DNA of 64,000 nt from Candidatus Portnoybacteria bacterium RBG_19FT_COMBO_36_7 (GCA_001819495.1 MHMW01000028.1:69398-133397); one strand, 5' to 3'; shown: positions 21,583 through 46,491, numbered from the stretch's first letter. Numbers and translations: made by a program. The notes: generated by a model not told the origin, from the letters alone.

Positions 21583-22197
21583 TTGAAAAAGATAGATAAT
21601 ATTTCGATTGGTGTGCCGGCTGTAGTTGTCGTGAAAAAAATTGCGGATATAAATTTAATTGACAAGCTAACATTTATTTTATATACCACGCAGAAGCCTA
21701 ACGAAAAAATACTAAAAGAGCCTGATGTGCCAGTTGATTTATTATTGCGGCATAGCGGTCAAACCGATGAGGCGCGTCTGCCTGTTAAGAGGGAAGAGAT
21801 TTATGATTTCTATGATAGGTATACAAATAAAATAAGGCAGGAATCAGCTATCGGTGTATGCTCATCGGTGAACATGAGGCAGAATTTTTTTCATATCCCA
21901 ATGATAGATTTTCACTGCGATGTGTCAGATGTCAATTTAGCAAGGCTGAAGGATTTTTTGCTCTATATCGGCCAAAAAGAAGGTGCAATTTTAGAGTCTG
22001 GAAGATCATATCATTATTACGGGATAAAACTTTTAACAGTTGAGCAGTGGGTAGAATTTATGGGTAAATGCTTATTGCTCTGTACAGATGCGGGACAGAG
22101 ATACATAGGGCACTCTTTGATGGACGGGTTTTGTACTTTAAGAATATCTGGCAAGGCATTGCATAATTATATCCCAAAAGTTGTAACAATCTTATGA
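21583..22197 (+). CDS. hypothetical protein, weak archaeo-eukaryotic primase (AEP/PrimPol)-like motif pattern
   Basis: TTG start after extended -10 TGTATAAAA and RBS AAAGGAGAGGGGG; motifs IPMIDFHCD, SGRSYHYYG, LCTDAG with spacing reminiscent of AEP motifs I-II-III; unverified. Confidence 0.4.
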   Translation: MKKIDNISIGVPAVVVVKKIADINLIDKLTFILYTTQKPNEKILKEPDVPVDLLLRHSGQTDEARLPVKREEIYDFYDRYTNKIRQESAIGVCSSVNMRQNFFHIPMIDFHCDVSDVNLARLKDFLLYIGQKEGAILESGRSYHYYGIKLLTVEQWVEFMGKCLLLCTDAGQRYIGHSLMDGFCTLRISGKALHNYIPKVVTIL

Positions 22198-22261
22198 AGG
22201 GTCTCTATCGAGAGCCCTTTTTTATTTGAATTTCATTTGAGCGTGGAGTATACTAAAATCA

Positions 22262-22837
22262 ATGATTTCTTCTTTGGAAGGCAAAATTGCGCTCAAGTCC
22301 GAGAAATACGCCGTAATTGAAACCAACGGTATTGGTTTTCGCGTCAACCTATCTGAAAAAACTCTTTCAAAAATACCACAAATAGGGGCTTCTGTTAAGC
22401 TTTTTACCTATCTTTCTGTCAAAGAGAATGGCTGGGATCTGTTCGGATTTTTAACTTTTGACGAGCTGGAACTTTTTGAACTTTTAATTTCTATTCCAGG
22501 TATCGGGCCAAAAACCGCTTCAAATATTTTAGCCTTAGCCTCGGTTGAAGACCTGCAGGAAGCAATTGTTTTGGGCGATGAAACGATTTTAGCGCGAGTT
22601 TCGGGCATCGGCAAAAAAGTGGCGCAAAAGATAGTTTTGGAATTAAAATCAAAAGTTAAAAAATTATCAAAAGGAGAAGGCTCGGGCATAGCCGGCGACA
22701 TAGAAGTAATTGATGCGCTTGTTAATTTGGGTTATAAGGTTTATGAAGTCAGGGAAGTTTTACAAAAACTGCCGGAAAACATTAAGGGCCTGGAAAACAG
22801 GGTTAAAGAAACTTTGAAGAGATTAGGCAAGAAGTAA
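22262..22837 (+). CDS. ruvA: Holliday junction DNA helicase subunit RuvA
   Basis: MISSLEGKI...IETNGIGFRV N-terminus, HhH motifs (IPGIGPKTA), C-terminal domain III. Confidence 0.9.
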   Translation: MISSLEGKIALKSEKYAVIETNGIGFRVNLSEKTLSKIPQIGASVKLFTYLSVKENGWDLFGFLTFDELELFELLISIPGIGPKTASNILALASVEDLQEAIVLGDETILARVSGIGKKVAQKIVLELKSKVKKLSKGEGSGIAGDIEVIDALVNLGYKVYEVREVLQKLPENIKGLENRVKETLKRLGKK

Positions 22838-22977
22838 GCCCAAATATCAAATCCCCGCCCGCCAGAGCCGATTGGATGAGCAATGGGATATTGATGAAAG
22901 AAACTGAATGCAGACATAACTTATTAAAACCACTTGTTCGCTTTGGCAATCGGCGGGCAGGCAAATTATTCCAAATC

Positions 22978-23061
22978 AAGGTCAAAATCCAAAATCCAAA
23001 ACGTTTTAAGCTTTGAACTTTGGATTTGATTTGACATTTGAGCTTTGATATTTGGATTTAA
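22978..23061. repeat. long heptamer-periodic array with internal inverted symmetry (GTCAAAA TCCAAAA TCCAAAA ... TTTGGAT TTGATTT GAC ...)
   Basis: about 12 units of 7 nt; the first half is approximately the reverse complement of the second half, giving a long imperfect hairpin between ruvA and the FemAB gene. Confidence 0.6.
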
Positions 23062-24062
23062 AAAATAATCTCCTAATGCAAGATAAAACAACATTTGACA
23101 GGGAGGATTGGAATAAATTCGTTCTTGAGCAGGACGGTTCTTTTTTACAATCCTGGGAATGGGGCGAGTTTCAAAAAGCAATTGGCAGGCAGGTATTCTA
23201 TTTGAAAGTCGACAGCTATCAATCGCTGATTATAAAACATGATCTAGCGTTGGGAAAGAGCTATCTTTATTGTCCGAGAGGGCCGATTGCTTCGCTTAAT
23301 TTAAAAGTTGAAAGTGAAAAATTAAAAATTATTGAGTTATTTTTAAAAGAAATAAAAGAATTAGCGAAACAGGAGAACGCGATATTTGTGAGAGTTGAGC
23401 CGACAAGGGGTATCGCTGAAGACGATTTAAGAAAAGCGGGATTTATCAGAGCTCAGAAAGAGGTTCAGCCTTCACGGACGCTGATTTTGGATTTGAATTT
23501 GAGTGAAGAAGAATTGTTGGCGCAAATGCACGAGAAAACGCGATATAACATAGGGCTAGCCCAGCGCAAAGGCATTTCCGTGACCTTAAGAAAATTAGAA
23601 GACGGAGAAGAAGCTTTTGAAAAATTCTGGCAGCTTTTGAATCAGACGGCAAAAAGGCAGAAGATCAGTATTTTCTCCAGAGATTATTACAAAAGGCAGA
23701 TGACCATCAAAAGCGGCCAATTTGAAAACCTGCTTTTCATCGCCGCTTATCAGGGCAAGGCAATCGCGGCCAACCTTGTCATTTTTTTTGGAAACACAGC
23801 GACTTATTTGCACGGCGGGTCTGACAATGTATATCGTGCTCAAATGGCGCCGCATCTGCTTCAGTGGGAGCAGATAAAAGAAGCCAAAAGGCGTGACTGC
23901 AGAACATATGATTTTTGGGGAATTGACGAAAATAATTGGCCGGGAATAACCAGATTCAAAAATGGTTTTGGCGGCAGAGAAGTTCAATATATCGGCACTT
24001 TCGACCTGATTCTGAAACAGGCCTGGTATAGCGCTTATGTTTTAATTAAAAAAGTTTTATAA
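23052..24062 (+). CDS. FemAB-family peptidyltransferase (FemX-like, tRNA-dependent peptidoglycan branch formation)
   Basis: WEWGEFQK N-region; ANLVIFFGNTATYLHGGSDNVYRAQMAPHLLQWEQIKEAKRRDCRTYDFWGI resembles FemAB C-terminal region; start could be 23076 instead. Confidence 0.65.
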   Translation: MDLKNNLLMQDKTTFDREDWNKFVLEQDGSFLQSWEWGEFQKAIGRQVFYLKVDSYQSLIIKHDLALGKSYLYCPRGPIASLNLKVESEKLKIIELFLKEIKELAKQENAIFVRVEPTRGIAEDDLRKAGFIRAQKEVQPSRTLILDLNLSEEELLAQMHEKTRYNIGLAQRKGISVTLRKLEDGEEAFEKFWQLLNQTAKRQKISIFSRDYYKRQMTIKSGQFENLLFIAAYQGKAIAANLVIFFGNTATYLHGGSDNVYRAQMAPHLLQWEQIKEAKRRDCRTYDFWGIDENNWPGITRFKNGFGGREVQYIGTFDLILKQAWYSAYVLIKKVL

Positions 24063-25375
24063 TGAAAAATTTATTGAAAAAACTTGTCCCAAACTTTATT
24101 TTTAGCATCTACCATTGGAAGCTGGCTTATTTAGGAGCGATGATTTATGGTTTCCCTTCGCGAAAACTGATTGTGATTGGCGTGACAGGGACAAAAGGCA
24201 AAACAACAACCTGCAATTTGATTGCCCAGATTTTGAATGGCGCAGGATATAAAACTGGTATGGCTACAACTGTTAATTTCAGGATTGGCGAAAAAGAATG
24301 GATAAACGAATATAAGCAGACAATGCTTGGGAGATTCAGGCTACAGAAACTGTTGCGGCAAATGGTTCGCGAAGGATGCAAATACGCGGTGATAGAAACT
24401 TCTTCAGAAGGAATTTTGCAGCACAGGCACAGAGGCATAAATTATTCTGTTGCGGTTTTCACTAATTTGTCGCCCGAACACATTGAGCGCCACGGTAGCT
24501 TTGAAAATTATCGGGCGGCCAAGCTCAAATTATGCGAGGCAGTGGCAAAAAAAAGAGAAGGTATCGGGATTTATAATCTGGATGACGCCAACGTGGATTA
24601 TTTTTTGAAATGCAATATTTTAAATAAATTCGGGTATGGAACGCATAATAAATATCAGCTTGCAAGTTTCAATAAAATTTCAGAGATTAAATTATTTCCA
24701 GACCACACCGAATTTTCTGTCAATGGTGAAAAATTTCAGATGCCTTTGATCGGCGAATTCAATGTTTATAACGCCACCGCCGCGATTTGCGTGGTACAAT
24801 CACAGGGAATTAGGATAGAGAAAATCAAAGAAATTTTAAAGCACACCAAACCGACCCCGGGCAGATTGGAGATTGTAAATATTGGTCAGTCCTTTACTGT
24901 CATTGTTGATTACGCGCATGAGCCGGCTTCGCTGGAAGCGGTTTATAAATTTTTGATTGAAATGAAAAAATTTACCCCGAGCGTAGTCGAGGGGCCAAAA
25001 AGAATTATTGCCTTACTCGGCGCACAGGGCGGGGGAAGAGACAAGGGAAAACGTCCGGAATTGGGCAGGATAGCGGGAGAATTCGCGGATATAATAATAG
25101 TTACAAATGAAGACCCGTATGATGAAAGTCCGCAGCAGATAATTGATGATGTAAAACAAGGAATAACCCCTCGACTTCGCTCGGGGCAGAATCTCTTTGA
25201 GATTTTGGATCGTAGAGAAGCAATTAAAAAAGCGCTGAGCCTGGCCGAGCCAGGGGACATCGTGATTTTAACAGGCAAAGGAGGCGAAGTCTGGATGTGC
25301 GTAGAAAATGGCAAAAAAATACCCTGGAATGAGCGGGAAATAATTGAAGAAGAACTAAGGAGAGCAGTTTTTTAA
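24062..25375 (+). CDS. Mur ligase family protein (MurE-like central and C-terminal domains; the N-terminal UDP-binding domain is replaced by a hydrophobic segment)
   Basis: GVTGTKGKTTT P-loop; FTNLSPEHIERHGSFENYRAAKLKL; C-terminal Mur ligase domain; ATG overlaps the FemAB stop by 1 nt. Confidence 0.65.
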   Translation: MKNLLKKLVPNFIFSIYHWKLAYLGAMIYGFPSRKLIVIGVTGTKGKTTTCNLIAQILNGAGYKTGMATTVNFRIGEKEWINEYKQTMLGRFRLQKLLRQMVREGCKYAVIETSSEGILQHRHRGINYSVAVFTNLSPEHIERHGSFENYRAAKLKLCEAVAKKREGIGIYNLDDANVDYFLKCNILNKFGYGTHNKYQLASFNKISEIKLFPDHTEFSVNGEKFQMPLIGEFNVYNATAAICVVQSQGIRIEKIKEILKHTKPTPGRLEIVNIGQSFTVIVDYAHEPASLEAVYKFLIEMKKFTPSVVEGPKRIIALLGAQGGGRDKGKRPELGRIAGEFADIIIVTNEDPYDESPQQIIDDVKQGITPRLRSGQNLFEILDRREAIKKALSLAEPGDIVILTGKGGEVWMCVENGKKIPWNEREIIEEELRRAVF

Positions 25376-25417
25376 AAATAAAAAAATATAATTCTATTAG
25401 GAAGGGAGGACAAAGAT

Positions 25418-25624
25418 ATGACAGGCAGAGAGATTCTTGTTTGTACCGATTGTAAAAGCGCGATTTTCGTGGATTCAGTAGCCAATACGGCGCCAAGATT
25501 TACAGGTAACTTCGGGGATCATCCGGAAAACAGGGAAATGATTGATGGGCAAGACGACTTGCGTGATTTTAAAAGAACCCACAGGAAACACAAAGTTATT
25601 GAAGTTAAGCTTAAGTATGATTGA
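25418..25624 (+). CDS. small hypothetical protein with CxxC
   Basis: RBS GGAAGGGAGG 7 nt upstream; 68 aa; single CTDC motif. Confidence 0.4.
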   Translation: MTGREILVCTDCKSAIFVDSVANTAPRFTGNFGDHPENREMIDGQDDLRDFKRTHRKHKVIEVKLKYD

Positions 25625-25712
25625 TCGGAAGATGGAACTATAATAGGCCAAAAACTGATTTTTAGCTTTTGGCCTTATTTTTTTCTTTAAAACACGGTGA
25701 TATAATTGATTC

Positions 25713-26120
25713 ATGGACAAGTCTTTCGAAATTTTAGATCATCCGGCGGATTTGAAAATCAGGGCTTTTGGAAAAACAAAAGAAGGATTGTTTTTGAACA
25801 TGATGCGCGGCATGGCAGAGTCACAGCAGGGAGAAATTGAAAACAAAAAAGAAATAAAAAAAGAAATTAAAGTTAAATCTTCTGATCTGGCCTCGCTTTT
25901 GGTTGATTTTTTAAGCGAGATAATCTATCTCAGTCAGACAAATAAAGAGATTTATTTTAATGCAGGATTCAGAAAATTCAGCGAAAATTATCTAGAAGGA
26001 GAATTATTTGGCCAAAAAGTCAAAAGATTTAATGAAGACATCAAGGCGGTTACTTATCACGAATTGGAAATAAAAAAAGCTGATGACCACTGGGAAGCAA
26101 CAGTCATTTTCGACATATGA
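25713..26120 (+). CDS. archease (RtcB activator)
   Basis: FEILDHPADLKIRAFG N-terminal signature; 135 aa; stop overlaps rtcB start. Confidence 0.85.
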   Translation: MDKSFEILDHPADLKIRAFGKTKEGLFLNMMRGMAESQQGEIENKKEIKKEIKVKSSDLASLLVDFLSEIIYLSQTNKEIYFNAGFRKFSENYLEGELFGQKVKRFNEDIKAVTYHELEIKKADDHWEATVIFDI

Positions 26121-27547
26121 TGACCAAAAAAGACTTAAATAAAATTTCCGATTTTGTTTGGGAAATTCCAAAGAGTTTTCGCGCTGACATGCGCGTGCCG
26201 GCCAGAATTTACGCAGACCAAAATCTGCTGGAAAAAGTATTTGATGACAGGTCGCTTGAGCAACTGATAAATGTTGCCACTTTGCCGGGCATCATAAATT
26301 ATGCTTTGGCCATGCCCGATATGCACGAAGGTTATGGTTTCCCAATTGGCGGAGTGGCTGGTTTTGAGGCAAAAGAAGGGATAATTTCGCCTGGCGGAGT
26401 CGGATACGATATTAATTGCGGAGTGCGAGTTTTGCGTTCTGATTTGAGCTTTGGCGAAATACAGCCGCACATTGTCAATTTAATGAATCAAATTCAGCGC
26501 GATGTGCCATCGGGTGTCGGTCAGGGCGGCGGAGTGAAATTAAGCGAAGAATCAATGAAAAAAGTTCTGGAGGAGGGAGTGAGATGTATTATTGAAAAGG
26601 GATACGGCCAAAAAGAAGATATTGAATATTGCGAGGAAAGGGGAATGATGGCTGGCGCGCAGGCTTCAGCGGTTTCTGAAAAGGCAAAAAGCAGGGGGCG
26701 CGACCAATTAGGCACCCTGGGAGCAGGCAATCATTTTTTGGAAGTCCAGAAAGTTGATGAAATTTTTGACGATAAAATCGCGGCAGTTTTTGGCTTAAAA
26801 AAGGATTTGGTGACAATAATGATACATTGCGGATCGCGAGGCCTGGGTCACCAAGTGGCAACCGACTATGTTTCAGTTATGCACAAAGTCGCGTCAAAAT
26901 ATAAAATTTCTTTGTCCGATGCGGAGCTGGCCTGCGCGCCTTTTGAAAGCCAGGAAGGCAAGCAATATTTTTCAGCCATGGCTTCCAGCGCCAATTTTGC
27001 CTGGGCCAATAGGCAGATGATAATGCATTTGGTGCGCGGCGCCTGGCAGAGGATTTTAGGGCAAAGCGGCGGACAGCTGAAACTGATTTATGACGTAGCG
27101 CATAATGTGGCGAAATTAGAGAAATATGATGGTCAGAATTTAGTTATTCACAGAAAAGGGGCGACTCGCGCTTTTCCTCCGGCCAGCCATGATATTCCAG
27201 AAAAATATCGGCTATCCGGCCAGCCGGTTTTGATTCCCGGCACCATGGGCACGGCTTCTTATATTTTAGCCGGCACGCAGAAAGCTAAAGAAACATTTTT
27301 TTCTGTTTGCCACGGCGCGGGCAGGGTAATGTCGCGCCATGCTGCCATTCGAGCGGCTGAAAGCAGTCAATTGCGCCAGAAATTGGAATCAGAAGGAATT
27401 GTGGTGCGTTGTTTATCAAATAAAGGCCTGGCTGAAGAAGCGCCGATGGCATATAAAGACATTCATAATGTTGTTGAAGTAGTTGAACAGGCGGGTCTGG
27501 CAAAAAAAGTGGCTCGGCTGAAACCATTGGGAGTAATAAAGGGTTAA
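26117..27547 (+). CDS. rtcB: RNA-splicing ligase RtcB (3'-phosphate/5'-hydroxyl RNA ligase)
   Basis: ALAMPDMHEGYGFPIGGVAG, NHFLEV, metal-binding His/Cys pattern; 476 aa. Confidence 0.95.
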   Translation: MMTKKDLNKISDFVWEIPKSFRADMRVPARIYADQNLLEKVFDDRSLEQLINVATLPGIINYALAMPDMHEGYGFPIGGVAGFEAKEGIISPGGVGYDINCGVRVLRSDLSFGEIQPHIVNLMNQIQRDVPSGVGQGGGVKLSEESMKKVLEEGVRCIIEKGYGQKEDIEYCEERGMMAGAQASAVSEKAKSRGRDQLGTLGAGNHFLEVQKVDEIFDDKIAAVFGLKKDLVTIMIHCGSRGLGHQVATDYVSVMHKVASKYKISLSDAELACAPFESQEGKQYFSAMASSANFAWANRQMIMHLVRGAWQRILGQSGGQLKLIYDVAHNVAKLEKYDGQNLVIHRKGATRAFPPASHDIPEKYRLSGQPVLIPGTMGTASYILAGTQKAKETFFSVCHGAGRVMSRHAAIRAAESSQLRQKLESEGIVVRCLSNKGLAEEAPMAYKDIHNVVEVVEQAGLAKKVARLKPLGVIKG

Positions 27548-31968: not shown

Positions 31969-32571
31969 ATGGAAAAAATAGCGTCATCTTATCTAAAATA
32001 TAAAATTTGCGTTTCAGGGGCAGCGGTAACCGATTGTTGCTCGCCGGACGCCCTGGAAAAAGCCAAAGAAGTTGGCCGGGAAATTGTCAGGCACAACGGG
32101 GTTTTAGTAACCGGTGCGACTACCGGTATTCCTTACTGGGCGGCGATCGGCGCCAAAGATGAAGGCGGGATTTCAATCGGTCTCTCGCCGGCTGCTTCTG
32201 AAGAAGCGCATGTTAAAGCTTACCGCCTGCCAACTGACTATTTTGATATGATAATCTACACCGGTTTTGAATATGCAGGCAGAAATCTTTTATTGACCAG
32301 ATCTTCAGATGCGGTGATTGTAATTTGTGGCCGCATGGGAACATTAAACGAATTTACTATCGCTTTTGAAGATAAAAAACCCATTGGAGTTTTGACAGGA
32401 ACAGGAGGCATGTCAGATTTTTATGACGATATAGTAAAAAAAGCCAAACGCGGTCCGGGGAAAATCGTTTATGATTCAGATCCCAAGACCTTAGTTGAAA
32501 AAGTGCTTGAATTGGTAGAAAAAGAAAAGGTGGTTAAAATAGAGAAAAAGCCGAGAATAAAAAAAGATTAA
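31969..32571 (+). CDS. LOG/TIGR00725-like Rossmann-fold protein
   Basis: ICGRMGTLNEF resembles the LOG-family GxGTxxE motif; about 200 aa. Confidence 0.5.
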   Translation: MEKIASSYLKYKICVSGAAVTDCCSPDALEKAKEVGREIVRHNGVLVTGATTGIPYWAAIGAKDEGGISIGLSPAASEEAHVKAYRLPTDYFDMIIYTGFEYAGRNLLLTRSSDAVIVICGRMGTLNEFTIAFEDKKPIGVLTGTGGMSDFYDDIVKKAKRGPGKIVYDSDPKTLVEKVLELVEKEKVVKIEKKPRIKKD

Positions 32572-32574
32572 ATA

Positions 32575-32652
32575 AAATGCCTGAATTGGCCGCTGGTTGG
32601 CGGTTTGACGGGCGAAACCCACTTTCGCTAATGCTACGGTGGGCGAGGGGAG
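32575..32652 (+). promoter_or_regulatory. GC-rich structured 5' leader (candidate cis-regulatory RNA) upstream of a small beta-barrel protein gene
   Basis: local GC spike in an AT-rich genome; hairpins GGGCGAAACCC and CCCAC-16nt-GTGGG; ends in strong SD GGGGAGGTG. Confidence 0.3.
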
Positions 32653-32661
32653 GTGAGAATA

Positions 32662-32919
32662 ATGGCGGAAGAAAAATTAGTCGGCAAGATCATACATTTC
32701 TACACTAACATCGGCGTGGGCATCATTGAACTTTCCGATAAATTGGATGCGGGCGAAAAAATTCATGTCAAAGGATTAAGCACCGATTTTGAGCAGACAG
32801 TGGAATCTATGCAGGTTGAGCATCAAAATGTGGAGTCAGCCAAAGCCGGAGAATCTATCGGAATAAAATTGAATGAGAAGGTGAGGGAAGGCGACGAAGT
32901 TTTTAAATTATTTGAATAA
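32662..32919 (+). CDS. small beta-barrel protein resembling EF-Tu domain 2 (hypothetical)
   Basis: ATG 9 nt after GGAGG; GKIIHFYTNIGVGIIEL...GEKIHVKG...GESIGIKL pattern like translation-factor beta-barrel domains. Confidence 0.45.
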   Translation: MAEEKLVGKIIHFYTNIGVGIIELSDKLDAGEKIHVKGLSTDFEQTVESMQVEHQNVESAKAGESIGIKLNEKVREGDEVFKLFE

Positions 32920-32945
32920 TCGAGCGAAAAGATTTTTATTTGGAT

Positions 32946-33023
32946 AATTCGGATGTATTCGTAAATTTGGGTCGCTTTGAAAACTGACCCGAATGACCCG
33001 AATCAGACCCGAATATCCCGAAT
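32946..33023. promoter_or_regulatory. array of GACCCGAAT direct repeats with upstream inverted half-sites (candidate operator) before the permease gene
   Basis: GACCCGAAT x3 plus TCCCGAAT at 9-11 nt spacing; upstream AATTCGGAT / GGGTC are reverse-complement half-sites. Confidence 0.4.
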
Positions 33024-33046
33024 GATTTTAGATTACAGTTTTTTAT

Positions 33047-34183
33047 ATGTCTAAAAAATTTTTCTATGCTTTGTCTGTCTTGACTGGAATGATTATTGGT
33101 GTAGGAATTTTTGGGATTCCTTATTGTTTCGCCCAGACCGGAATTTTGATTGGCTTTTTTTATTTGATTTTTTTGACCATCGTGGTCACAAGCATCCATC
33201 TTTTATACGGCGAGATAATTTTACGAACAGGTCAGGATTGCCGTTTGGTGGGCTACGGCGAAAAATATCTTGGACCAAAAGGCAAGGCGGCGGTGACTGG
33301 CATTGTTATTTTCCAGTTTTATGGGGCTCTTTTGGCCTATATAATCGCGGGCGGATATTTTTTGAACATAATTTTTGGCAGATTTTTTGGCGGCACGGAT
33401 TTTTCGTGGTCGCTGATTTTTTTTGCTTTGGGAGCTCTGGCTATTTTTTTCGGGCTGAAAACAGTTTCACTTTCCGAGTTTTTTATGGCAATTATTCTTG
33501 TGGTTCTCGCCTGTCTTTTTGTTTTAAAAGGAGCGCCTTTTGTCAGTTTTGAAAATCTTAAAGGTTTTAATCTAATGAAATTTTTTCTGCCCTACGGCGT
33601 CGTTTTCTTTTCTTTGACAGGCGGAGCGGCAGTGCCGGAGCTTCGCCAGATCCTGAAGGGGCAGGAAAGAAAAATTAAAAGAGTCATAGTTTTAGGGACG
33701 GTGATTCCGGCAGTTATTTATTTTCTTTTTGCTCTGGTGGTGGTCGGAACAACGGGGCAGGATACGAGCAAAGATGCAATTTCTGGTCTTGTCCCTTATC
33801 TTGGGCAAAATATTATTGTCTTGGGTGCAGTTTTTGGGTTTTTGACGGTTATTACTTCTTTTTTAATGCTTGGTCTGAATCTGCGAAAAATGTTCCAGCT
33901 GGATTATAAACTGAACAAATTTTTGGCTTGGGCGCTGGCCTGTTTTATTCCTCTCATTGCTTTTTTAATTGGCTTTAAAGATTTTATCATGGTCATCGGG
34001 CTGATCGGTGCAGTGGCCGGAGGTTTTGAGGGGATTGTGACAATTTTAATTTATCGCCGCGCAAAAAAAATGGGCAACCGCCAGCCCGAATACAGCCTTA
34101 AATTAAACAGAATATTTATCTGGACAATGGTTCTGCTTTTTGCCTTAGGCATATTTTACGAGTTTATCTATTTGGCAAAATGA
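33047..34183 (+). CDS. amino acid permease-like transporter (about 11 TM)
   Basis: entirely hydrophobic with 11 predicted helices; N-terminal LSVLTGMIIGVGIFGIPY resembles Trp/Tyr-permease/AAAP-type carriers. Confidence 0.55.
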   Translation: MSKKFFYALSVLTGMIIGVGIFGIPYCFAQTGILIGFFYLIFLTIVVTSIHLLYGEIILRTGQDCRLVGYGEKYLGPKGKAAVTGIVIFQFYGALLAYIIAGGYFLNIIFGRFFGGTDFSWSLIFFALGALAIFFGLKTVSLSEFFMAIILVVLACLFVLKGAPFVSFENLKGFNLMKFFLPYGVVFFSLTGGAAVPELRQILKGQERKIKRVIVLGTVIPAVIYFLFALVVVGTTGQDTSKDAISGLVPYLGQNIIVLGAVFGFLTVITSFLMLGLNLRKMFQLDYKLNKFLAWALACFIPLIAFLIGFKDFIMVIGLIGAVAGGFEGIVTILIYRRAKKMGNRQPEYSLKLNRIFIWTMVLLFALGIFYEFIYLAK

Positions 34184-37564: not shown

Positions 37565-37597
37565 CAATAAAAAATGCGCAGCTGATTCAGCTGCGCA
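37565..37597 (-). terminator. intrinsic terminator downstream of the NUDIX gene
   Basis: perfect palindrome TGCGCAGCTGATTCAGCTGCGCA followed on the minus strand by a T-run. Confidence 0.65.
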
Positions 37598-37612
37598 TTA
37601 TTCAGTCAAAGC

Positions 37613-38020
37613 TTACATGCTTTTTTTGTATTCTTCAATCACGGGCTTGATGTTCGGCGCGCAGTCTGGTGGCAGATTATCAATGTTAAACCATTTCGCC
37701 TCTCTTATATCTTCACCAAGCTTTACTTCACCGAGGCGTTTTGCTAGATAGTGGATTAAGATAACCCATGTTTGTAGATCACCGGGTTTTGGTATCATCA
37801 TTGGTTTTAGCGGCCGGATGATTTCAATATCAATGCCCATTTCTTCTTTAACTTCGCGGCGGCAGGCCTCTTCCAAAGAATTATTTATATCGGAAAAATC
37901 GAAATCTTCCACGCGGCCGCCCAAAAACTTCCAGAAAGTGTCATCACCGTGCTTGTTCAAAAGAACTTTACCTTCTTCAATAATGACCGGTCCTGAAGCG
38001 ACAATAAATTGTTTTTCCAT
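37613..38020 (-). CDS. NUDIX hydrolase
   Basis: Nudix box GGRVEDFD...EACRREVKEEMGI. Confidence 0.85.
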   Translation of the reverse strand: MEKQFIVASGPVIIEEGKVLLNKHGDDTFWKFLGGRVEDFDFSDINNSLEEACRREVKEEMGIDIEIIRPLKPMMIPKPGDLQTWVILIHYLAKRLGEVKLGEDIREAKWFNIDNLPPDCAPNIKPVIEEYKKSM

Positions 38021-38039: not shown

Positions 38040-39641
38040 CTATATGTTTTTTATCATATATTCATTTTTTAGTCCATAGCCGAGCTTTTTGTAGTAGTGG
38101 CGTACGCCAATGCCGGAAATGACAGCGATTTTTTTGTAGCCATCTTTTTTCGCTATTTTTTCCGCTTCAGCCATCAGCTTTTTGCCAAGACCGGAATGCT
38201 GGACGATTTTTTTGTCTGAGTTTATGCCGAGCGGAGCGAGATGGCCGTAAGTGTGCAATTCGCGGATTAGGGCAGAGCCATTTAATACGGGCGAGGCTTC
38301 AGCTTGAACAGATGGGATGCGCAGCCGCAAAAGCGCGTATAATTTTTTTTGTTTTGGGTCTTCAAAAGATAAAAATATTTCTTTGCCTCCCGAAGCCTTG
38401 TATTCGCGGCGGAATAATTTGATTTTATCACTTGGCAAATACTGACCCCGGATTTCGCGGCATCTGATGCAGCGGCATTGCTTCTGGCCTGAATTATCTA
38501 TAATTTGGCGCAGATTGGTCAGTTTGCTGCCGGCGATTATGCTTTGGCCGGGAATGTCTCTGATAATTCTTTGAATGCGCACATAAGGCGGAATTTTTTG
38601 TTTGATGCGCAGAATTAAATCAATGAGCTGGATTTCATTATAAGGCTTATATTTTCCTTGTTTCCAAAATTTATAGAGCTGGGCAGTTTTCAAAATAATG
38701 CAGGGATAGATTTTTAAGAGATCGGGCTGGAAATCCGGATTTTTAAATAATTCTTCAAGCATCTTTTCATCGCGCGCCAAATTTGAGCCTGGCAGATTAA
38801 GCATCATATGATAGTTAATTTTAAATCCCGCATTTTTTAAAAGTTTCGTGGCCCGTATCGTTTCTGCCACATCATGGCCGCGCAGATTTTTTCTTAAAAT
38901 GTCATCATAAATGCTTTGAACGCCCAATTCAACCCTTGTGCATCCCAGATCCCGCATTCTTTTAATTTCATCCAGATCAATAAAGTCGGGTCTGGTTTCC
39001 AAAGTCAGCCCGATGATACGATGTGCAGCAGTTTCATTCTTTTTCTGTTCTGCTTTTAATAATTTCCGTAAATTTTGAATTTTTAACTGTGATTTTGAAC
39101 TTTGAACTTTCAGCTTTGAACTTAAGGCGTTAGCCGCTTTGAAGCACTCTTTTATAAACCAGTATTGGTATAATCCCGGATATGCACTCCATGTTCCGCC
39201 CAGCACAATCAGTTCGATTTTGTCAGTTGGATGACCGGTCATTTTTAGCGCTTCGATTCTAGTTCTGACCTGCGCATAAGGATTAAATTTTGTCAGGTAC
39301 GCTCTTTGGGCTGCTGGCTCATTTTTCAGGTAGCTTTTGGGCATTCCTCTCTCATTCGGGCAATAAAGGCATCGGCCGGGGCAGGGCCATGGCTTTGTCA
39401 GCACTGTAATCACGGCCACGCCAGATGAAGTTCTTATTTCGCGGGTTTTTAGTGTTTTTTCCAGCTGTGGATTACTTTTTACCTTTTTCTTTTTGAGCAA
39501 ATCGTGATAAACTTTAAGCAGTTGAATATTATTGGGAACTTTTTGTTTAAATCTTAAGCTGCCCTCTCGCTTAATCTTAGCCAAATCTTGGGGGGTTTGG
39601 ATTTTTTGTTTGATTGATTGGCGAACGATATAAGTTAACAT
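38040..39641 (-). CDS. Elp3-family radical SAM + GNAT protein (tRNA wobble-uridine cm5U-type modification enzyme homologue)
   Basis: radical SAM CPGRCLYCP (Cx4Cx2C), radical SAM core, C-terminal GNAT HSGLGKKLMAEAEKIAKKDGYKKIAV; 533 aa. Confidence 0.8.
   Translation of the reverse strand: MLTYIVRQSIKQKIQTPQDLAKIKREGSLRFKQKVPNNIQLLKVYHDLLKKKKVKSNPQLEKTLKTREIRTSSGVAVITVLTKPWPCPGRCLYCPNERGMPKSYLKNEPAAQRAYLTKFNPYAQVRTRIEALKMTGHPTDKIELIVLGGTWSAYPGLYQYWFIKECFKAANALSSKLKVQSSKSQLKIQNLRKLLKAEQKKNETAAHRIIGLTLETRPDFIDLDEIKRMRDLGCTRVELGVQSIYDDILRKNLRGHDVAETIRATKLLKNAGFKINYHMMLNLPGSNLARDEKMLEELFKNPDFQPDLLKIYPCIILKTAQLYKFWKQGKYKPYNEIQLIDLILRIKQKIPPYVRIQRIIRDIPGQSIIAGSKLTNLRQIIDNSGQKQCRCIRCREIRGQYLPSDKIKLFRREYKASGGKEIFLSFEDPKQKKLYALLRLRIPSVQAEASPVLNGSALIRELHTYGHLAPLGINSDKKIVQHSGLGKKLMAEAEKIAKKDGYKKIAVISGIGVRHYYKKLGYGLKNEYMIKNI
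39074..39122. repeat. heptamer array embedded in-frame in the Elp3 gene (TTTTGAA TTTTTAA CTGTGAT TTTGAAC TTTGAAC TTTCAGC TTTGAAC)
   Basis: 7 units of 7 nt; encodes SSKLKVQSSKSQLKIQNL on the minus strand. Confidence 0.6.
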
Positions 39642-40329
39642 GGATAGAGAATTCGCGCTGAAAATTTTGGAAGATATCCGGCAGAGTTATGACAAGATTG
39701 CCGAAGATTTTTCGCGCACAAGAAAATCAGTCTGGGAGGAATTTAAACCGTTGAACCAATATGCTAAAGATGGCGATAAAATCCTGGATTTGGGATGCGG
39801 CAATGGCAGATTCGTTGAATTGTTTCAGGGTAAGAAAGTGGAATATGTCGGAATTGATGCTTCAGAAAAATTAATAGAAATTGCCAGCGGGAAATATCCC
39901 AATATCAATTTTCGGGCTTTCGACGGCCTAAAAATTCCTTTTTCTGATAACTATTTCGACGCGATATATTGCGTAGCTGTTTTGCATCATATTCCGGGGA
40001 ATGAATTAAGGCAAGAATTTTTGAAAGAAGTGTGCCGAGTACTGAAACCAAGCTGTAGATTGGTTTTAAGCACCTGGTATCTATGGCAGCAGAATACATT
40101 TTGGGGATTGCTTTTTAAGTTTACATTAAAAAAGTTAGTTGGCAAGTCGCGTCTGGATTTTTTTGATGTCATGGAGCCCTGGGGAAAAATATCGGAAAGA
40201 TACGTTCATAATTTCAGAAAAAAGGAGTTAAAAAACTTAATCAGAAAATGCGGTTTTGAAATTGAAGACTTTTTTGTTTTAAGAAGAGGATTGCATAATA
40301 ATAATTTATTAATGGTGGCAAAAAAATAA
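39640..40329 (+). CDS. class I SAM-dependent methyltransferase (Trm9-like motif I), divergent from Elp3
   Basis: motif I ILDLGCGNGRF; motif II/III pattern; 229 aa; start codon abuts the Elp3 start on the opposite strand. Confidence 0.7.
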   Translation: MDREFALKILEDIRQSYDKIAEDFSRTRKSVWEEFKPLNQYAKDGDKILDLGCGNGRFVELFQGKKVEYVGIDASEKLIEIASGKYPNINFRAFDGLKIPFSDNYFDAIYCVAVLHHIPGNELRQEFLKEVCRVLKPSCRLVLSTWYLWQQNTFWGLLFKFTLKKLVGKSRLDFFDVMEPWGKISERYVHNFRKKELKNLIRKCGFEIEDFFVLRRGLHNNNLLMVAKK

Positions 40330-41657
40330 TGTCGTTCATCGCCGATTTTCATATTCATTCTAAATACTCCCGCGCCACCTCGCGCGATATGGACCTGGAG
40401 CATCTTGAGCAGTGGGCAAAGATAAAAGGGATCAAGATTCTGGGCACGGGCGATTTTACCCATCCTGTCTGGTTTAAAGAGTTGACCTCCAGACTTGAGC
40501 CGGCTGAAAAAGGGCTGTTTAAAATTAAAAGGCATGGTTTGAACGGAAAGTCAAAAAACGGAAATGATCTGGGCTGGTATACTCCTTGCTTCAGGCCTGA
40601 AGAAATCAGGTTTATTCTAACGACAGAAATCAGCTGTATTTATTCAAAAAACAACCGGACCAGAAAAATTCATCTGATTGTCTTTGCGCCAAGCTTTGAA
40701 TTTGTTGAAAAATTCAATACTCACCTGGGATGGCTGGGAAATCTGAAAGCGGATGGCCGGCCGATTTTGGGGCTGGATGCAAAAGAAATTGTTAAAATTT
40801 CCCTGAATTTGTCGTCAGAGGCAATGGTTGTTCCCGGCCATGCCTGGACTCCCTGGTTTTCTATCTTTGGCTCAATGTCGGGTTTTAATTCAATTCAGGA
40901 ATGCTTCGACGAATATTCGAGGCATATTTATGCGATTGAAACCGGCCTTTCCAGCGATCCGGCCATGAACTGGCGGGTAGCAGATTTAGACGACATAACC
41001 TTAATTTCTAATTCCGATTCCCACAGCCCGCAGAAAATTGGCCGGGAGGCAAATATTTTGGAAGGCAAAGAGATTAGTTATTCAAAGATTACCGAAGCGA
41101 TACGGCTGGGAGCCAAAGCGCCAAAATCAAATAGCCTGCGATTGATAAAAACAGTTGAATTCTTTCCTGAAGAAGGAAAATATCATTATGACGGCCATCG
41201 CGTCTGCAAGGTCGTTTTTAGTCCCCAAGAAACAAAAAAACATAAAAATATCTGTCCTGTCTGCGGCCGGCCCCTGACCATCGGAGTAATGAACAGGGTG
41301 GATGAGCTGGCCAAGCGGCCTGAGGAATTCAAAAAAGAAGGGGCGATTCCGTATTTAAGCCTTATTCCGCTTGAAGAAATAATTGCCGATGCATTTGGAG
41401 TCGGAGTTGGCACAAAAACAGTTGACCGTGAATATAAAGATCTGATAAATAAATTCGGCAACGAATTCAATATTTTGATGGACGCTTCCCGCAGCGAACT
41501 TGAAAGGTCAACTAAGCCCGAAGTGGCAGAAGGAATTATCAGGGTCAGAGAGAAAAAGGTAAAGATTGAGCCGGGCTATGACGGCGAATACGGAAAGATC
41601 AAGATTTTTAGCGAGGGAGAACAGAAGGGTTATTCCAAGCAGAGCAGCCTTTTTTGA
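40329..41657 (+). CDS. PHP-domain phosphoesterase with C-terminal zinc ribbon
   Basis: N-terminal DFHIHSKYS PHP motif; further His/Asp metal ligands; CPVCGRPL zinc ribbon; 442 aa. Confidence 0.6.
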   Translation: MSFIADFHIHSKYSRATSRDMDLEHLEQWAKIKGIKILGTGDFTHPVWFKELTSRLEPAEKGLFKIKRHGLNGKSKNGNDLGWYTPCFRPEEIRFILTTEISCIYSKNNRTRKIHLIVFAPSFEFVEKFNTHLGWLGNLKADGRPILGLDAKEIVKISLNLSSEAMVVPGHAWTPWFSIFGSMSGFNSIQECFDEYSRHIYAIETGLSSDPAMNWRVADLDDITLISNSDSHSPQKIGREANILEGKEISYSKITEAIRLGAKAPKSNSLRLIKTVEFFPEEGKYHYDGHRVCKVVFSPQETKKHKNICPVCGRPLTIGVMNRVDELAKRPEEFKKEGAIPYLSLIPLEEIIADAFGVGVGTKTVDREYKDLINKFGNEFNILMDASRSELERSTKPEVAEGIIRVREKKVKIEPGYDGEYGKIKIFSEGEQKGYSKQSSLF

Positions 41658-41808: not shown

Positions 41809-42021
41809 TTGGCCTTCAATAAATTTGGCAAAGGACCTCGAAGAGATGACGGCGGCGCCGGTCCTGGCGGAGGTTTTCAGCGGCAGATGTTCCAGGGCGA
41901 CTGGACCTGTTCTGATTGCGGAGGAAAAATAACGGAACTGCCCTTCCAGCCGGCACCGGATCGTCCTATATACTGCCGTGACTGCCACCAGAAACACAGG
42001 CAAGATCGTTTTAGCCGCTAA
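41809..42021 (+). CDS. small zinc-ribbon protein (CxxC...CxxC) with Gly-rich N-terminus
   Basis: TTG start 8 nt after AGGTGA; CSDCGGKITELPFQPAPDRPIYCRDC pattern. Confidence 0.45.
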   Translation: MAFNKFGKGPRRDDGGAGPGGGFQRQMFQGDWTCSDCGGKITELPFQPAPDRPIYCRDCHQKHRQDRFSR

Positions 42022-42951: not shown

Positions 42952-43893
42952 ATGAAGAAAAACAAAAAAGCAAAAGCTTTGGTTTTGCTTTCAGGCGGCT
43001 TGGATTCAATTTTGGCCGTCAGATTATTGCAGGAACAGGGAATAGAAGTTGTGGCGATAAATTTCCGGACTAATTTTTGCGGCCCGTCCAAAGCCAGACC
43101 GGCGGCGCAGGCGCTGGGCGTGCCTCTGCGCGAAGTTGATATCAGAAATGAATTTATTGAAGTTTTGAAGAAACCAAAACACGGCTACGGCGCGGGACTG
43201 AATCCCTGCATTGACTGCCACGCCTTGATGCTAAAAAAAGCAGCAGAGATCACGAGGCGGGAAGGTTATGATTTTGTGGCCACCGGCGAAGTTTTAGGCG
43301 AACGGCCGATGTCTCAGTATAGAAAAGCCTTAAAGATCGTGGAAAAAGAAGCTGGCCTGGAAGGTTATTTATTGCGTCCGCTTTCCGCCAAATTGCTTGA
43401 GCCGACAGTTGCCGAACATGACGGTCGTATCAATCGTGAAAAATTATTGGCTTTGAGCGGTCGCAACCGGAAACCGCAGATGGAACTGGCAAAAAAATTT
43501 GGCATTAAACAATATCCCAGCCCGGCGGGCGGCTGCGCTCTGACGCAGGCTGGATTTGTTGAGCGGTTAAGGGAACTGATAGGTCAAAAACCGGATTTTA
43601 ATTCAGAAGACACAGATTTAGTGCGGATTGGCAGGCATTTTTGGATTGAAGGCAGGCAGATTATCATTGGCCGCAATAAAGAGGAAAATCAAATTTTGGA
43701 AGCCATTTTTAAAAAAGGCGATATTTTAATTAAGCCAAAAAGCTTTATCGGGCCAAGCGCCCTTTTGCGAGGAGAAAAAATTGACAGCCAGATAGTTCAA
43801 AGAATCAAAGAATTAATCTTTAAGTTTTCGTCTGGGGCAAAAAATTTAGATATATCGGAATTAAATTTTAAAACGAGAGGCAGAATCAAATAA
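42952..43893 (+). CDS. PP-loop ATP pyrophosphatase, ThiI/MnmA-like tRNA thiolation-type enzyme
   Basis: PP-loop LLSGGLDSILA; CIDC plus a later Cys; about 313 aa; exact subfamily not resolvable by eye. Confidence 0.55.
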   Translation: MKKNKKAKALVLLSGGLDSILAVRLLQEQGIEVVAINFRTNFCGPSKARPAAQALGVPLREVDIRNEFIEVLKKPKHGYGAGLNPCIDCHALMLKKAAEITRREGYDFVATGEVLGERPMSQYRKALKIVEKEAGLEGYLLRPLSAKLLEPTVAEHDGRINREKLLALSGRNRKPQMELAKKFGIKQYPSPAGGCALTQAGFVERLRELIGQKPDFNSEDTDLVRIGRHFWIEGRQIIIGRNKEENQILEAIFKKGDILIKPKSFIGPSALLRGEKIDSQIVQRIKELIFKFSSGAKNLDISELNFKTRGRIK

Positions 43894-44766: not shown

Positions 44767-46491
44767 ATGATGAATTCAAAAATAGCCAAGATTTTTTATC
44801 AGATATCGGAATATCTTATCATGAAAGATGTGGCTTTTAAGCCCCAGGCCTATGAGCGGGCAGCGCGGCTTATCGAATCAATGGAAGAAGATCTTGATGA
44901 TGTCTACAAAAAAGGCGGGGTTAAAGCTTTGATGAAAATTGAAGGCATTGGAGAAAGCATGGCGGAAAAAATAGAGGAATTCATCAAAACAGGCAAAATA
45001 AAAGATTATGAAAAATTGCGAAAAGAGTGCCCGGTTGACCTGGAAGTGCTGACATCAGTAGAGGGGATCGGGCCAAAAATGATAAAAGCGCTTTACGAAA
45101 AACTGCATGTGAAAACGTTAAACGATTTGGAAAAAGCGGCCAAAGCCCATAAGATTCAGAAATTGCCGCGATTCGGGCCCAAAGTCGAGGAAAATATCTT
45201 GACCGGCATTGAATTTGCCAAAGGAAGCCATGGCCGGTTTTTGCTGGGTTTTATTTTGCCGCTGGTGCGAAAAATAGAAAATCGGCTGCGGGATCTGGAT
45301 TTTGTTTCCCAGGCAGTGGCGGCCGGTTCGGTCCGCCGCATGAAAGAAACCGTCGGGGATATCGATATTTTAGTCGTTTCTTCCAAGCCGGAAAAAGCGA
45401 TGGACTATTTTTGTTCGATGAACGAAGTGGAAAAAATAATTGCCAAAGGAGAAACAAAGAGTTCAGTACGGCTGGATCTGGGGCTGGATGCCGATATCAG
45501 GGTTGTTGCAAAAGAAAGTTTCGGCGCCGCTCTGCAGTATTTTACCGGCAATAAAGACCATAACGTGGTGCTTCGCCGGCTGGCTCAGGATAAAAGATTT
45601 AAGCTCAACGAATACGGCATTTTTCGCGGCAAAAAACGAATTGCCGGAAAAACCGAAGAGGAAGTTTATAAAGTTCTTGGACTTGAATGGATGGATCCGG
45701 AATTAAGAGAAAATACAGGCGAAATAGAGGCATCTGATTCGGGCAAACTGCCGAAACTCGTCGATTACAAAGATATCAAAGGCGATCTGCAGATGCATTC
45801 GGAATGGTCGGATGGCGCGCATTCAATAAAAAAATTAGCCGAAACAGCAGGACAGCTTGGCCATGAATATATTGCCATAACCGATCATACGGGCGAGCTA
45901 CGCATTGCCGGCGGCATGAGCGAAAAAGAAATTTTGAGATATTTTGTCGAAATCGAAAAGATTGATAAGGCGCTTAAAGGCATCAGAATTTTAAAAGGAA
46001 TTGAAACAAATATCAGAAAAGACGGGACAATTGATATCTCTGACAAAATTCTGGCCAAAGCAGACATTGTTTTGGCTTCGGTGCATTCCAATTTTAAAAT
46101 GGGCAAAGAAGAGATGACAAAAAGGATCTGCCGCGCAATGGAAAATCCATACGTTGACATTATTTCCCATCCAACGGCCAGGGTCATTCAGGGCCGGCCA
46201 GGATACGAAGTTGATTTTGACAAACTTTTTGAATGCGCCAAGCGAACAGGCACGGTGCTGGAAATAAATTCTTATCCAGACAGACTTGATCTTTCTGACG
46301 TCAATATCAAGCGGGCAATTGGGGCGGGAGTTAAACTTTCCATCGGCACTGATTCGCATTCAAGAAACCAGCTGCACAATATCGAACTTGGCATTGCGCA
46401 GGCGAGGCGAGGTTGGTCTGAAAAGAAAGACATAATCAACACAATGGGCTTTGAAGATTTAATAGTTTTTTTAAAGAGGCATAAAAAATGA
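44767..46491 (+). CDS. DNA polymerase X family protein with C-terminal PHP domain
   Basis: HhH motifs (IEGIGESMAEKI, VEGIGPKMI), nucleotidyltransferase GSVRRMKETVGDIDILV, C-terminal PHP histidines; 574 aa. Confidence 0.85.
   Translation: MMNSKIAKIFYQISEYLIMKDVAFKPQAYERAARLIESMEEDLDDVYKKGGVKALMKIEGIGESMAEKIEEFIKTGKIKDYEKLRKECPVDLEVLTSVEGIGPKMIKALYEKLHVKTLNDLEKAAKAHKIQKLPRFGPKVEENILTGIEFAKGSHGRFLLGFILPLVRKIENRLRDLDFVSQAVAAGSVRRMKETVGDIDILVVSSKPEKAMDYFCSMNEVEKIIAKGETKSSVRLDLGLDADIRVVAKESFGAALQYFTGNKDHNVVLRRLAQDKRFKLNEYGIFRGKKRIAGKTEEEVYKVLGLEWMDPELRENTGEIEASDSGKLPKLVDYKDIKGDLQMHSEWSDGAHSIKKLAETAGQLGHEYIAITDHTGELRIAGGMSEKEILRYFVEIEKIDKALKGIRILKGIETNIRKDGTIDISDKILAKADIVLASVHSNFKMGKEEMTKRICRAMENPYVDIISHPTARVIQGRPGYEVDFDKLFECAKRTGTVLEINSYPDRLDLSDVNIKRAIGAGVKLSIGTDSHSRNQLHNIELGIAQARRGWSEKKDIINTMGFEDLIVFLKRHKK

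Follow-up and report, generated by a model that had tools for sequence, protein, structure and literature searches.

We describe here a head-to-head pair of genes at positions 38,040 to 40,329 of a 64,000-nucleotide stretch of DNA (hereinafter, the window) from Candidatus Portnoybacteria bacterium RBG_19FT_COMBO_36_7. The pair codes for a homolog of Elp3 and a Trm9-like class I S-adenosylmethionine (SAM)-dependent methyltransferase, and is likely to constitute a functional pathway that converts 5-carboxymethyluridine (cm5U) to 5-methoxycarbonylmethyluridine (mcm5U) at the wobble position (U34) of tRNA. It would represent a self-contained, two-step wobble-uridine pathway of the archaeal and eukaryotic type in a member of the bacterial candidate phyla radiation (CPR). 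In eukaryotes, Elp3 makes cm5U, which Trm9 then methylates to mcm5U, and the order of these reactions is established. Archaeal Elp3 also makes cm5U in vitro, and the chemistry of the Elp3 family has been demonstrated with enzymes from archaea, bacteria and eukaryotes alike. The pathway itself is therefore known, as is the clustering of its genes in the archaeon Sulfolobus solfataricus, noted in 2008 (PMC2584109). What is new is its breadth in the Patescibacteria and Chloroflexota, a probable independence from Trm112, and a gene layout with overlapping start codons. A preliminary description of this DNA, drawn from the sequence alone, had suggested a linked two-step pathway in a bacterium; both the match of the methyltransferase to Trm9 profiles and the linkage of the two genes, recovered from either direction of search, now support that suggestion. 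Well over a hundred further bacterial genomes carry the same pair, which predicts a tRNA modification hitherto undocumented in bacteria.

A complete Elp3 with a basic N-terminus

The gene at 38040-39641 on the minus strand codes for a 533-residue protein that is, as judged from its sequence, a full-length Elp3, combining a basic N-terminal extension, a radical-SAM domain and a C-terminal GNAT/KAT domain. With the NCBIfam model TIGR01211 ('Elp3', cutoff 350) it scores 578.9 bits, residues 5-533 of the protein corresponding to model positions 2-522, and Pfam models recognize a Radical_SAM domain (69 bits), a Radical_SAM_C domain and a C-terminal GNAT domain (Acetyltransf_1, residues 481-522). 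The end-to-end match and the domain composition bear out the initial description of the gene as a full-length Elp3 with a CPGRCLYCP radical-SAM motif and a C-terminal GNAT. Its closest solved relatives are the archaeal MinElp3 (6ia8, E 8e-129), followed by the bacterial DmcElp3 of Dehalococcoides mccartyi (5l7j, E 1e-116) and yeast Elp3 (6qk7, E 7e-102), with human Elp3 also among them. In an alignment of 13 bacterial Elp3 proteins, the three cysteines of the CPGRCLYCP motif (C87, C91 and C94) are invariant, as are Q481, H482 and G486 of the acetyl-CoA-binding QHxGxG motif, of which G484 is nearly so; the prokaryote-type zinc site in the linker (CxCxxC: C389, C391 and C394) is likewise nearly invariant.

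N-terminal to the radical-SAM core, the window Elp3 has about 70 residues rich in lysine and arginine. In MinElp3, the basic N-terminal extension binds tRNA, whereas DmcElp3 lacks it (PMC6367351), and the chain of the latter is only 459 residues long. Long N-terminal extensions were also seen in Elp3 proteins of 533-591 residues encoded beside the methyltransferase in seven Chloroflexota loci. On the strength of its family membership, the window Elp3 is predicted to form cm5U34 on tRNA.

A methyltransferase of the Trm9 type

The second gene (39640-40329, plus strand) codes for a 229-residue class I SAM methyltransferase, whose assignment as Trm9-like draws on sequence profiles, profile-profile alignment, a hidden Markov model (HMM), the predicted fold and active-site residues. 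Its best Pfam family is Methyltransf_11 (77.8 bits), and its motif I (ILDLGCGNGRF, with the core LDLGCGNGR) is accompanied by the acidic SAM-binding residue D73, equivalent to D72 of Saccharomyces cerevisiae Trm9 (ScTrm9). In a single-sequence search of the PDB, Trm9 of Yarrowia lipolytica (5cm2_Z, a crystal construct that lacks the first 38 residues) comes third (E 8e-14) behind two uncharacterized archaeal methyltransferases. With a profile of 33 family members it moves to first place (87.7 bits, E 6.9e-24, residues 25-213), by a modest margin over the uncharacterized archaeal methyltransferases 1ve3 and 3sm3. A direct BLASTP comparison with ScTrm9 yields 31% identity (E 2e-21). For deeper comparisons, we retrieved authentic fungal Trm9 sequences with a query that shares 99% identity with S. 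cerevisiae Trm9p (P0121). Profile-profile alignment (hhalign) of the bacterial family with 15 fungal Trm9 proteins gives a probability of 99.9% (E 1e-32) across 211 columns that span the protein from its N-terminal helix to its final strand at the C-terminus, and an HMM of fungal Trm9 detects the window methyltransferase with 83 bits (E 3e-24). Among 2,832 open reading frames (ORFs) of at least 120 residues from the window and 160 related loci, this HMM matches 150, all of them the Elp3-adjacent methyltransferase. An AlphaFold2 model of the protein (pLDDT 92.7), searched with Foldseek, places Trm9 (5cm2_Z) second overall and first among characterized enzymes (E 1.5e-16, target-normalized TM-score 0.83). 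The profile, hhalign, Foldseek and HMM results all point to Trm9, in agreement with the first reading of motif I as Trm9-like. One further structure, PDB 6F5Z, was initially taken for the Haloferax Trm9–Trm112 complex, which would have made archaeal Trm9 a weak match; it was set aside, as the corresponding paper shows it to contain Hvo_0019, an unrelated Trm112 partner.

The family is sizeable: of 1.84 billion representatives at 50% identity, 1,172 belong to it with E <= 1e-30, and the top 150 of them are all single-domain proteins of about 230 residues. Annotations of the family disagree: at JGI, some members appear as TRM9 or ALKBH8 and several others as 'ubiquinone/menaquinone biosynthesis C-methylase UbiE', while the NCBI label is just 'class I SAM-dependent methyltransferase'.

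The functional affinities of the family can be judged more closely against the mutagenesis of ScTrm9, in which function is lost or strongly impaired with R29A, D72A, H116A, W145A, W168A, R241A, Y243A and N271A, while H24A, K31A, R122A, E148A, Q149A and D270A leave it intact (PMC4678810, Létoquart et al.). We aligned ScTrm9 with 142 complete prokaryotic family members from the recovered loci. Seven of the eight essential residues are strongly conserved: R29 (141 of 142; R28 in the window protein), D72 (140 of 142; D73), H116 (132 of 142; H117), W145 (in all 142; W146), W168 (W in 123 and F or Y in 17; W181), R241 (131 of 142; R187) and N271 (121 of 142; N222). Y243 is the sole exception and is considered further below. 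Also retained are H115, whose replacement by alanine has a mild effect (H in 134 of 142; H116 in the window protein), and Y18, a proposed carboxylate binder (Y in 137 of 142; Y17). Each of the six dispensable residues, in turn, is variable among the 142 and not conserved in the window protein. With eukaryotic Trm9 the family shares the Y…FSxTR…W helix at the N-terminus, the HH motif, W145, W168, the RY(Y)H strand and, in the C-terminal part, N271. In sequence terms, the family keeps the residues that yeast Trm9 needs to bind and methylate cm5U and not those that it can lose, a pattern we regard as the strongest evidence for a shared substrate and chemistry. Because this pattern matches the ScTrm9 mutagenesis, the same chemistry as in yeast can be predicted, namely that the window methyltransferase converts cm5U34 to mcm5U34.

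Reciprocal linkage of the two genes

We studied the association of the two genes in both directions. In the forward direction, one genome per GTDB species was scanned with methyltransferase patterns that hold no Elp3 information, which yielded 80 loci (L001-L080) with flanks of up to 10 kb on each side, in which Elp3 was then located by tblastn with the window Elp3. Of the 74 informative loci, 66 have an Elp3 gene no more than 10 kb from the methyltransferase: 59 are head to head at less than 400 bp, four are divergent at 0.8-3 kb and three have another orientation, the last including tandem pairs in a gracilibacterium (L041) and a crenarchaeote (L052). The remainder of the 80 comprises six loci with flanks too short to tell and eight with no Elp3 in the available flank. 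In the reverse direction, metagenomes were searched with an Elp3 alignment, and the methyltransferase was sought within 6 kb at each of 80 loci. Here 73 of 76 informative loci have the methyltransferase beside Elp3 (65 head to head, six divergent at up to 4.2 kb and two in other arrangements), with three lacking it and four uninformative. This adjacency cannot be put down to chance, as the head-to-head arrangement is seen again at 59 of the 80 species-level loci and at 65 of the 80 metagenomic ones. It persists while identity to the window proteins falls to 25-30% for the methyltransferase and about 40% for Elp3.

The CPR sources of the pair comprise Paceibacterota, Portnoybacteria, Kuenenbacteria, Kerfeldbacteria, Komeilibacteria, Peribacteria, Gracilibacteria and WWE3 among others. 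Outside the CPR, about 25 loci come from the Chloroflexota, mostly Anaerolineae, and a few from archaea (e.g. L009 and L052, both with Elp3 next door). The co-occurrence of the two genes, which was one of the checks proposed at the outset, accordingly holds in Patescibacteria, Chloroflexota and a few archaea. We also came across several metagenome-assembled genomes with a CPR-type pair that are labeled as Gammaproteobacteria, Nitrosomonadaceae or Saccharibacteria (L029, L031, L036, L048-L050 and L076); these depositors' bin labels look unreliable, and the taxon counts are to be taken with caution.

At the 80 genome loci, ORFs lying up to about 6 kb from the methyltransferase were clustered all against all, and no third conserved partner emerged: the methyltransferase occurs at all 80 loci and Elp3 at 66, along with antisense shadow ORFs, and the next family reaches only 15 of 80.

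The surface that binds Trm112

All characterized Trm9 enzymes require Trm112 (PMC4678810; PMC6144793), which covers a hydrophobic patch near strand beta-3, formed in Y. lipolytica Trm9 by V59, F78, V102, A110, P112 and F116 (PMC4678810). Three positions in the core of this interface are mostly charged or polar in the 142 prokaryotic homologs: the equivalent of V59 is K or R in 99 (K47 in the window protein), that of F78 is D, E or N in 88 (E68), and that of V102 is Q, R, K or E in 63 (R92). The last of these corresponds to L91 in yeast, where the L91R substitution breaks the Trm9–Trm112 complex. Tblastn and a zinc-knuckle/GIP regular expression returned only noise for a Trm112-like ORF in the window and in the 10-kb flanks of the 80 genome loci, a weak negative (with E. 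coli YcaR and yeast Trm112 as queries) that covers fragments of genomes and is no proof of absence. Because the Trm112-binding surface is polar and no gene for Trm112 is found nearby, we infer that the bacterial methyltransferase probably works alone.

Alternatively, the pathway could be the same but the methyltransferase could depend, as it does in eukaryotes and Haloferax, on a Trm112-like zinc-knuckle protein that is encoded at another place in the genome and forms an obligate heterodimer with it. The precedent of every characterized Trm9 speaks for such an arrangement, as does the retention of the yeast interface residues F105 and D106 in the family (F106 and D107), and short Trm112 orthologs of as yet unknown function do exist in bacteria (PMC5372719). 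The charged residues at the core of the interface, in particular at the position of L91, run counter to it, and neither the search for Trm112-like ORFs in the window and the flanks of the 80 genome loci nor the clustering of neighbors brought up a conserved small partner. We hence regard the heterodimer as unlikely and favor a methyltransferase that acts without Trm112. Bacterial homologs of the Trm112-partner methyltransferases have themselves been reported as undetectable (PMC5372719).

Weighing the pathway

Several observations weigh against a cm5U-to-mcm5U pathway encoded by the pair. First, the eight forward loci without Elp3 (L022, L031, L038, L047, L055, L057, L063 and L064) lack it in about 2-10 kb on each side; in these genomes Elp3 may lie elsewhere, or the methyltransferase copies may have another role. 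Second, a 2020 review found no direct evidence, biochemical or mass-spectrometric, for xcm5U such as cm5U and mcm5U in any bacterium, and DmcElp3, the only bacterial Elp3 tested biochemically, is weakly active in vitro (PMC7663514). Third, Y243, which yeast Trm9 needs for full activity (its alanine mutant keeps about 10%), is V189 in the window protein and variable across the family (Y in 60, V in 25, F in 19 and C in 12 of 142). Fourth, the uncharacterized 3sm3 is marginally ahead of Trm9 in the Foldseek comparison, and likeness of the modeled fold does not by itself tell Trm9 apart from the other small methyltransferases of class I. Fifth, the broad Pfam family Ubie_methyltran (PF01209) passes its low gathering score (46 versus 20.1 bits). 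Finally, the search for Trm112 was a weak one over partial genomes and leaves room for a partner encoded elsewhere.

Two of these points, the Ubie_methyltran match and the uncharacterized archaeal enzyme at the head of the Foldseek results, are also what one would expect if the methyltransferase were a generic class I enzyme of the UbiE/MenG type, acting on a small molecule or some other substrate, with its adjacency to Elp3 being inherited synteny devoid of a functional link; the UbiE labels that JGI attaches to several homologs concur. However, UbiE, MenG and COQ5 resemble the window protein in their class I Rossmann fold and GxGxG SAM motif, while the NCBIfam equivalog models for UbiE, MenG, UbiG and BioC all score far below their cutoffs, with the UbiE/MenG models missing them by about 100 bits or more (TIGR01934, 62.1 versus 158; PRK00216.1-5, 61.9 versus 216; TIGR02752, 41.7 versus 420), and JGI gives the names TRM9 or ALKBH8 to further members of the family. 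Moreover, the conserved catalytic residues specific to Trm9, which the window protein has, are not part of the SAM-binding motifs; the linkage of the family is with Elp3 rather than with genes for quinone biosynthesis; and the pair is kept down to 25-30% identity of the methyltransferase and across phyla, while all other neighbors change. A generic enzyme beside Elp3 thus appears highly improbable. The profile comparison against Trm9 and other class I families that had been proposed as a check accordingly came out for Trm9, the top PDB match of the family profile. Overall, then, we retain the view that the two genes likely form a cm5U-to-mcm5U pathway.

Overlapping start codons and candidate promoters

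The two genes share a CATG palindrome (39639-39642), in which their divergent start codons overlap by 2 bp. The N-termini of both proteins align with those of their homologs from residues 1-5, and for this reason the start codons are not miscalled. Start codons could be assigned in 127 head-to-head pairs, of which 34 have a gap of -2 (CATG) and 14 a gap of 0 (CATATG); the median gap is 3 bp, as against spacers of 34-177 bp between the other divergent pairs in the window. The preliminary description had the pair starting back to back from one divergent promoter. The head-to-head layout stands; the shared intergenic promoter does not, because the start codons overlap. For the same reason, each promoter is to be placed inside the partner gene, and the promoter of each gene would lie within the first codons of the other or deeper in it.

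The only candidate that we can offer is a -10-like hexamer, TATAAG (39629-39634, plus strand), which lies 5 nt before the ATG of the methyltransferase, in codons 3-5 of Elp3, and might serve as a leaderless promoter. The evidence for it is weak: a two-hexamer consensus scan did not pick it up, and nothing comparable was found upstream of the Elp3 start. The consensus promoter scan showed no excess of sites over shuffled sequence (16 versus 10.5 +/- 3.5), with none of them usefully placed. Leaderless mRNAs may be common in this organism, to judge from its sequence: a Shine-Dalgarno sequence is recognizable in only 10 of the 51 window genes, and several genes have an extended -10 element (TGnTATAAT or nearly so) ending about 7 nt before the ATG, such as those upstream of 5957, 25713 and 44767. 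We also considered an enrichment of -10 elements upstream of both ATGs in 58 tightly juxtaposed pairs and discarded it, as such a signal is inseparable from coding constraint on the conserved N-termini. At the other end of Elp3, a strong hairpin resembling an intrinsic terminator (37573-37599, minus strand), seen both in a terminator scan and on direct reading, has a 12-bp stem followed by a T run and would close the unit formed by Elp3 and the NUDIX gene downstream of it.

The proposed pathway and its relatives

In the first step, as suggested by the Elp3 family, the radical-SAM domain with its [4Fe-4S] cluster and the acetyl-CoA bound by the GNAT/KAT domain would add a carboxymethyl group to C5 of U34, giving cm5U34. 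In the second, as homology and the active site matching that of yeast Trm9 suggest, the methyltransferase would transfer the methyl group of SAM to the carboxylate of cm5U to form the methyl ester mcm5U34, probably without a Trm112 partner.

The end product might yet differ from plain mcm5U on the same nucleotide: it could be further thiolated (mcm5s2U), hydroxylated or turned into an amide, or the methyl ester could itself be no more than an intermediate. In eukaryotes, some tRNAs carry mcm5U in thiolated or hydroxylated form, and on others cm5U goes to ncm5U instead (PMC6367351), while in Haloferax cm5U does not accumulate in the trm9 deletion strain (PMC6144793). The window also holds, 2.6 kb downstream of the pair, a gene for a PP-loop ATPase of 313 residues (42952-43893, plus strand), with a weak N-terminal likeness to MnmA/ThiI, below all cutoffs, and a C-terminal NFACT-R_2 RNA-binding domain, which on its sequence may be a tRNA thiolase. 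We considered this protein as a 2-thiolation partner of the pair and rejected it, as it scores below every MnmA/ThiI cutoff and accompanies the pair at just 1 of 160 loci. With no third gene conserved alongside the pair, we hold a product other than plain mcm5U to be possible but disfavored, and consider mcm5U34 the expected outcome.

Comparison with the known systems brings out the minimal nature of the bacterial pair. With eukaryotic Elongator and Trm9–Trm112 (ALKBH8–TRMT112 in its other form), it shares the radical-SAM and KAT domains of Elp3 and the predicted order of cm5U before mcm5U; unlike them, it lacks the Elongator subunits Elp1, Elp2 and Elp4-6, no Trm112 was detected for it in the window and the locus flanks, the corresponding interface is polar and Y243 is not conserved. 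The bacterial methyltransferase further lacks the long insertion of the yeast enzyme and the AlkB and RRM domains of ALKBH8, and the bacterial genes, in contrast to the eukaryotic ones, are physically paired head to head. The archaeal enzymes come closer, with a stand-alone Elp3 that has a basic N-terminus, of which MinElp3 is the nearest solved relative, and with the clustered genes of Sulfolobus. Yet the host here is bacterial; Trm9 of Haloferax volcanii (HvoTrm9) needs Trm112 in vivo, the HvoTrm9–Trm112 complex making mcm5U in that archaeon (PMC6144793); and a head-to-head arrangement with overlapping start codons is not described in the literature searched.

Among bacteria, DmcElp3 is likewise a stand-alone Elp3 and has the same zinc-binding cysteine triad; it differs in its weak activity and in the absence of the basic N-terminal extension, whereas the window protein and the Chloroflexota Elp3 proteins encoded beside the methyltransferase have long N-termini, and a methyltransferase partner for it is not discussed in the literature searched. 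Reviews treat bacterial Elp3 as a curiosity of Dehalococcoides; a 2026 paper speaks of 'numerous bacteria'. Our search of the literature on Trm9 or Elp3 with Patescibacteria, CPR or bacterial gene clusters, which left most subscription journals outside, found no description of the pair. In most bacteria the functional analog is MnmE/MnmG (with MnmC), which likewise targets C5 of U34 and the decoding of NNA and NNG codons; the enzymes are unrelated, the former using GTPase activity, FAD, folate and glycine as opposed to radical SAM and acetyl-CoA.

More speculatively, much of the Patescibacteria/CPR and many Chloroflexota might make mcm5U34 with a minimal two-enzyme module that dispenses with the other Elongator subunits and Trm112, either replacing MnmEG or working beside it, and organized as a bidirectional CATG unit in which each promoter lies in the first codons of the partner; taken as a whole, this generalization is a tentative one. 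If true, conserved back-to-back and possibly leaderless promoters would couple the expression of both steps. In practical terms, the pair makes testable the existence of mcm5U in bacteria and the activity of a small Trm9 without Trm112. A stand-alone Trm9 would be useful for structures of tRNA recognition, which are hard to obtain with the eukaryotic heterodimers, and, as a model, a bacterial Elp3 whose tRNA-binding N-terminus is complete would be preferable to DmcElp3.

Flanking genes and genomic setting

The pair had been described as flanked by a PHP phosphoesterase with a zinc ribbon and a NUDIX hydrolase. Their positions are confirmed; the former proves to be a homolog of endonuclease Q (EndoQ), and neither gene is consistently linked to the pair. 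The EndoQ homolog (40329-41657, plus strand), with a PHP domain and a zinc finger, matches the Pyrococcus furiosus enzyme (PfuEndoQ, 5zb8) with E 2.9e-51 and the model TIGR00375 with 196 bits, below its cutoff of 326.6, and its ATG overlaps the stop codon of the methyltransferase in TAATG. EndoQ is a DNA repair nuclease known mainly from Thermococcales and a few bacteria, and it turns up again at many of the Parcubacteria loci studied here. The gene is probably an operon partner at this locus, outside the tRNA pathway; at 13 of the 80 genome loci an EndoQ gene lies no more than 10 kb from the pair, mostly with genes for a SLOG-cluster-4 protein, an EF-Tu-domain-2-like protein and a permease in between. 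The NUDIX hydrolase (37613-38020, minus strand; Pfam NUDIX, E 7e-14) lies 19 bp downstream of Elp3, has its own Shine-Dalgarno sequence (AAGGAGG) and is probably also an operon partner at this locus; NUDIX genes accompany the pair at 5 of the 80 genome loci. Neither EndoQ nor NUDIX belongs to the conserved unit.

The block coding for the SLOG-cluster-4 (LOG-like) protein, the 88-residue EF-Tu-domain-2-like protein and the amino-acid permease (31969-34183, plus strand) lies 6-8 kb from the pair in the window and directly 3' of the methyltransferase in about 35-45 Parcubacteria loci. Together with EndoQ, this block is confined to the Parcubacteria, and its proximity to the pair probably reflects synteny. 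Just after EndoQ lies a gene for a 70-residue treble-clef zinc-finger protein (41809-42021, plus strand; TIGR04272/PF23477), with a CxxC-x17-CxxC pattern and a glycine- and arginine-rich N-terminus.

The bacterial markers of the window, the G+C content of which is about 40%, include a tmRNA gene adjoining smpB as well as the genes for IF3, a Mur ligase, UvrB and RuvA, and the nearest named homologs of the studied genes are from Candidatus Portnoybacteria and other Parcubacteria of the CPR. Genes of an archaeal or eukaryotic flavor are concentrated at 21583-27547 and 44767-46491, adding to EndoQ, Elp3 and the Trm9-like gene: these code for an AEP-like primase (21583-22197), Archease with the RNA ligase RtcB (25713-27547) and PolX with a PHP domain (44767-46491).

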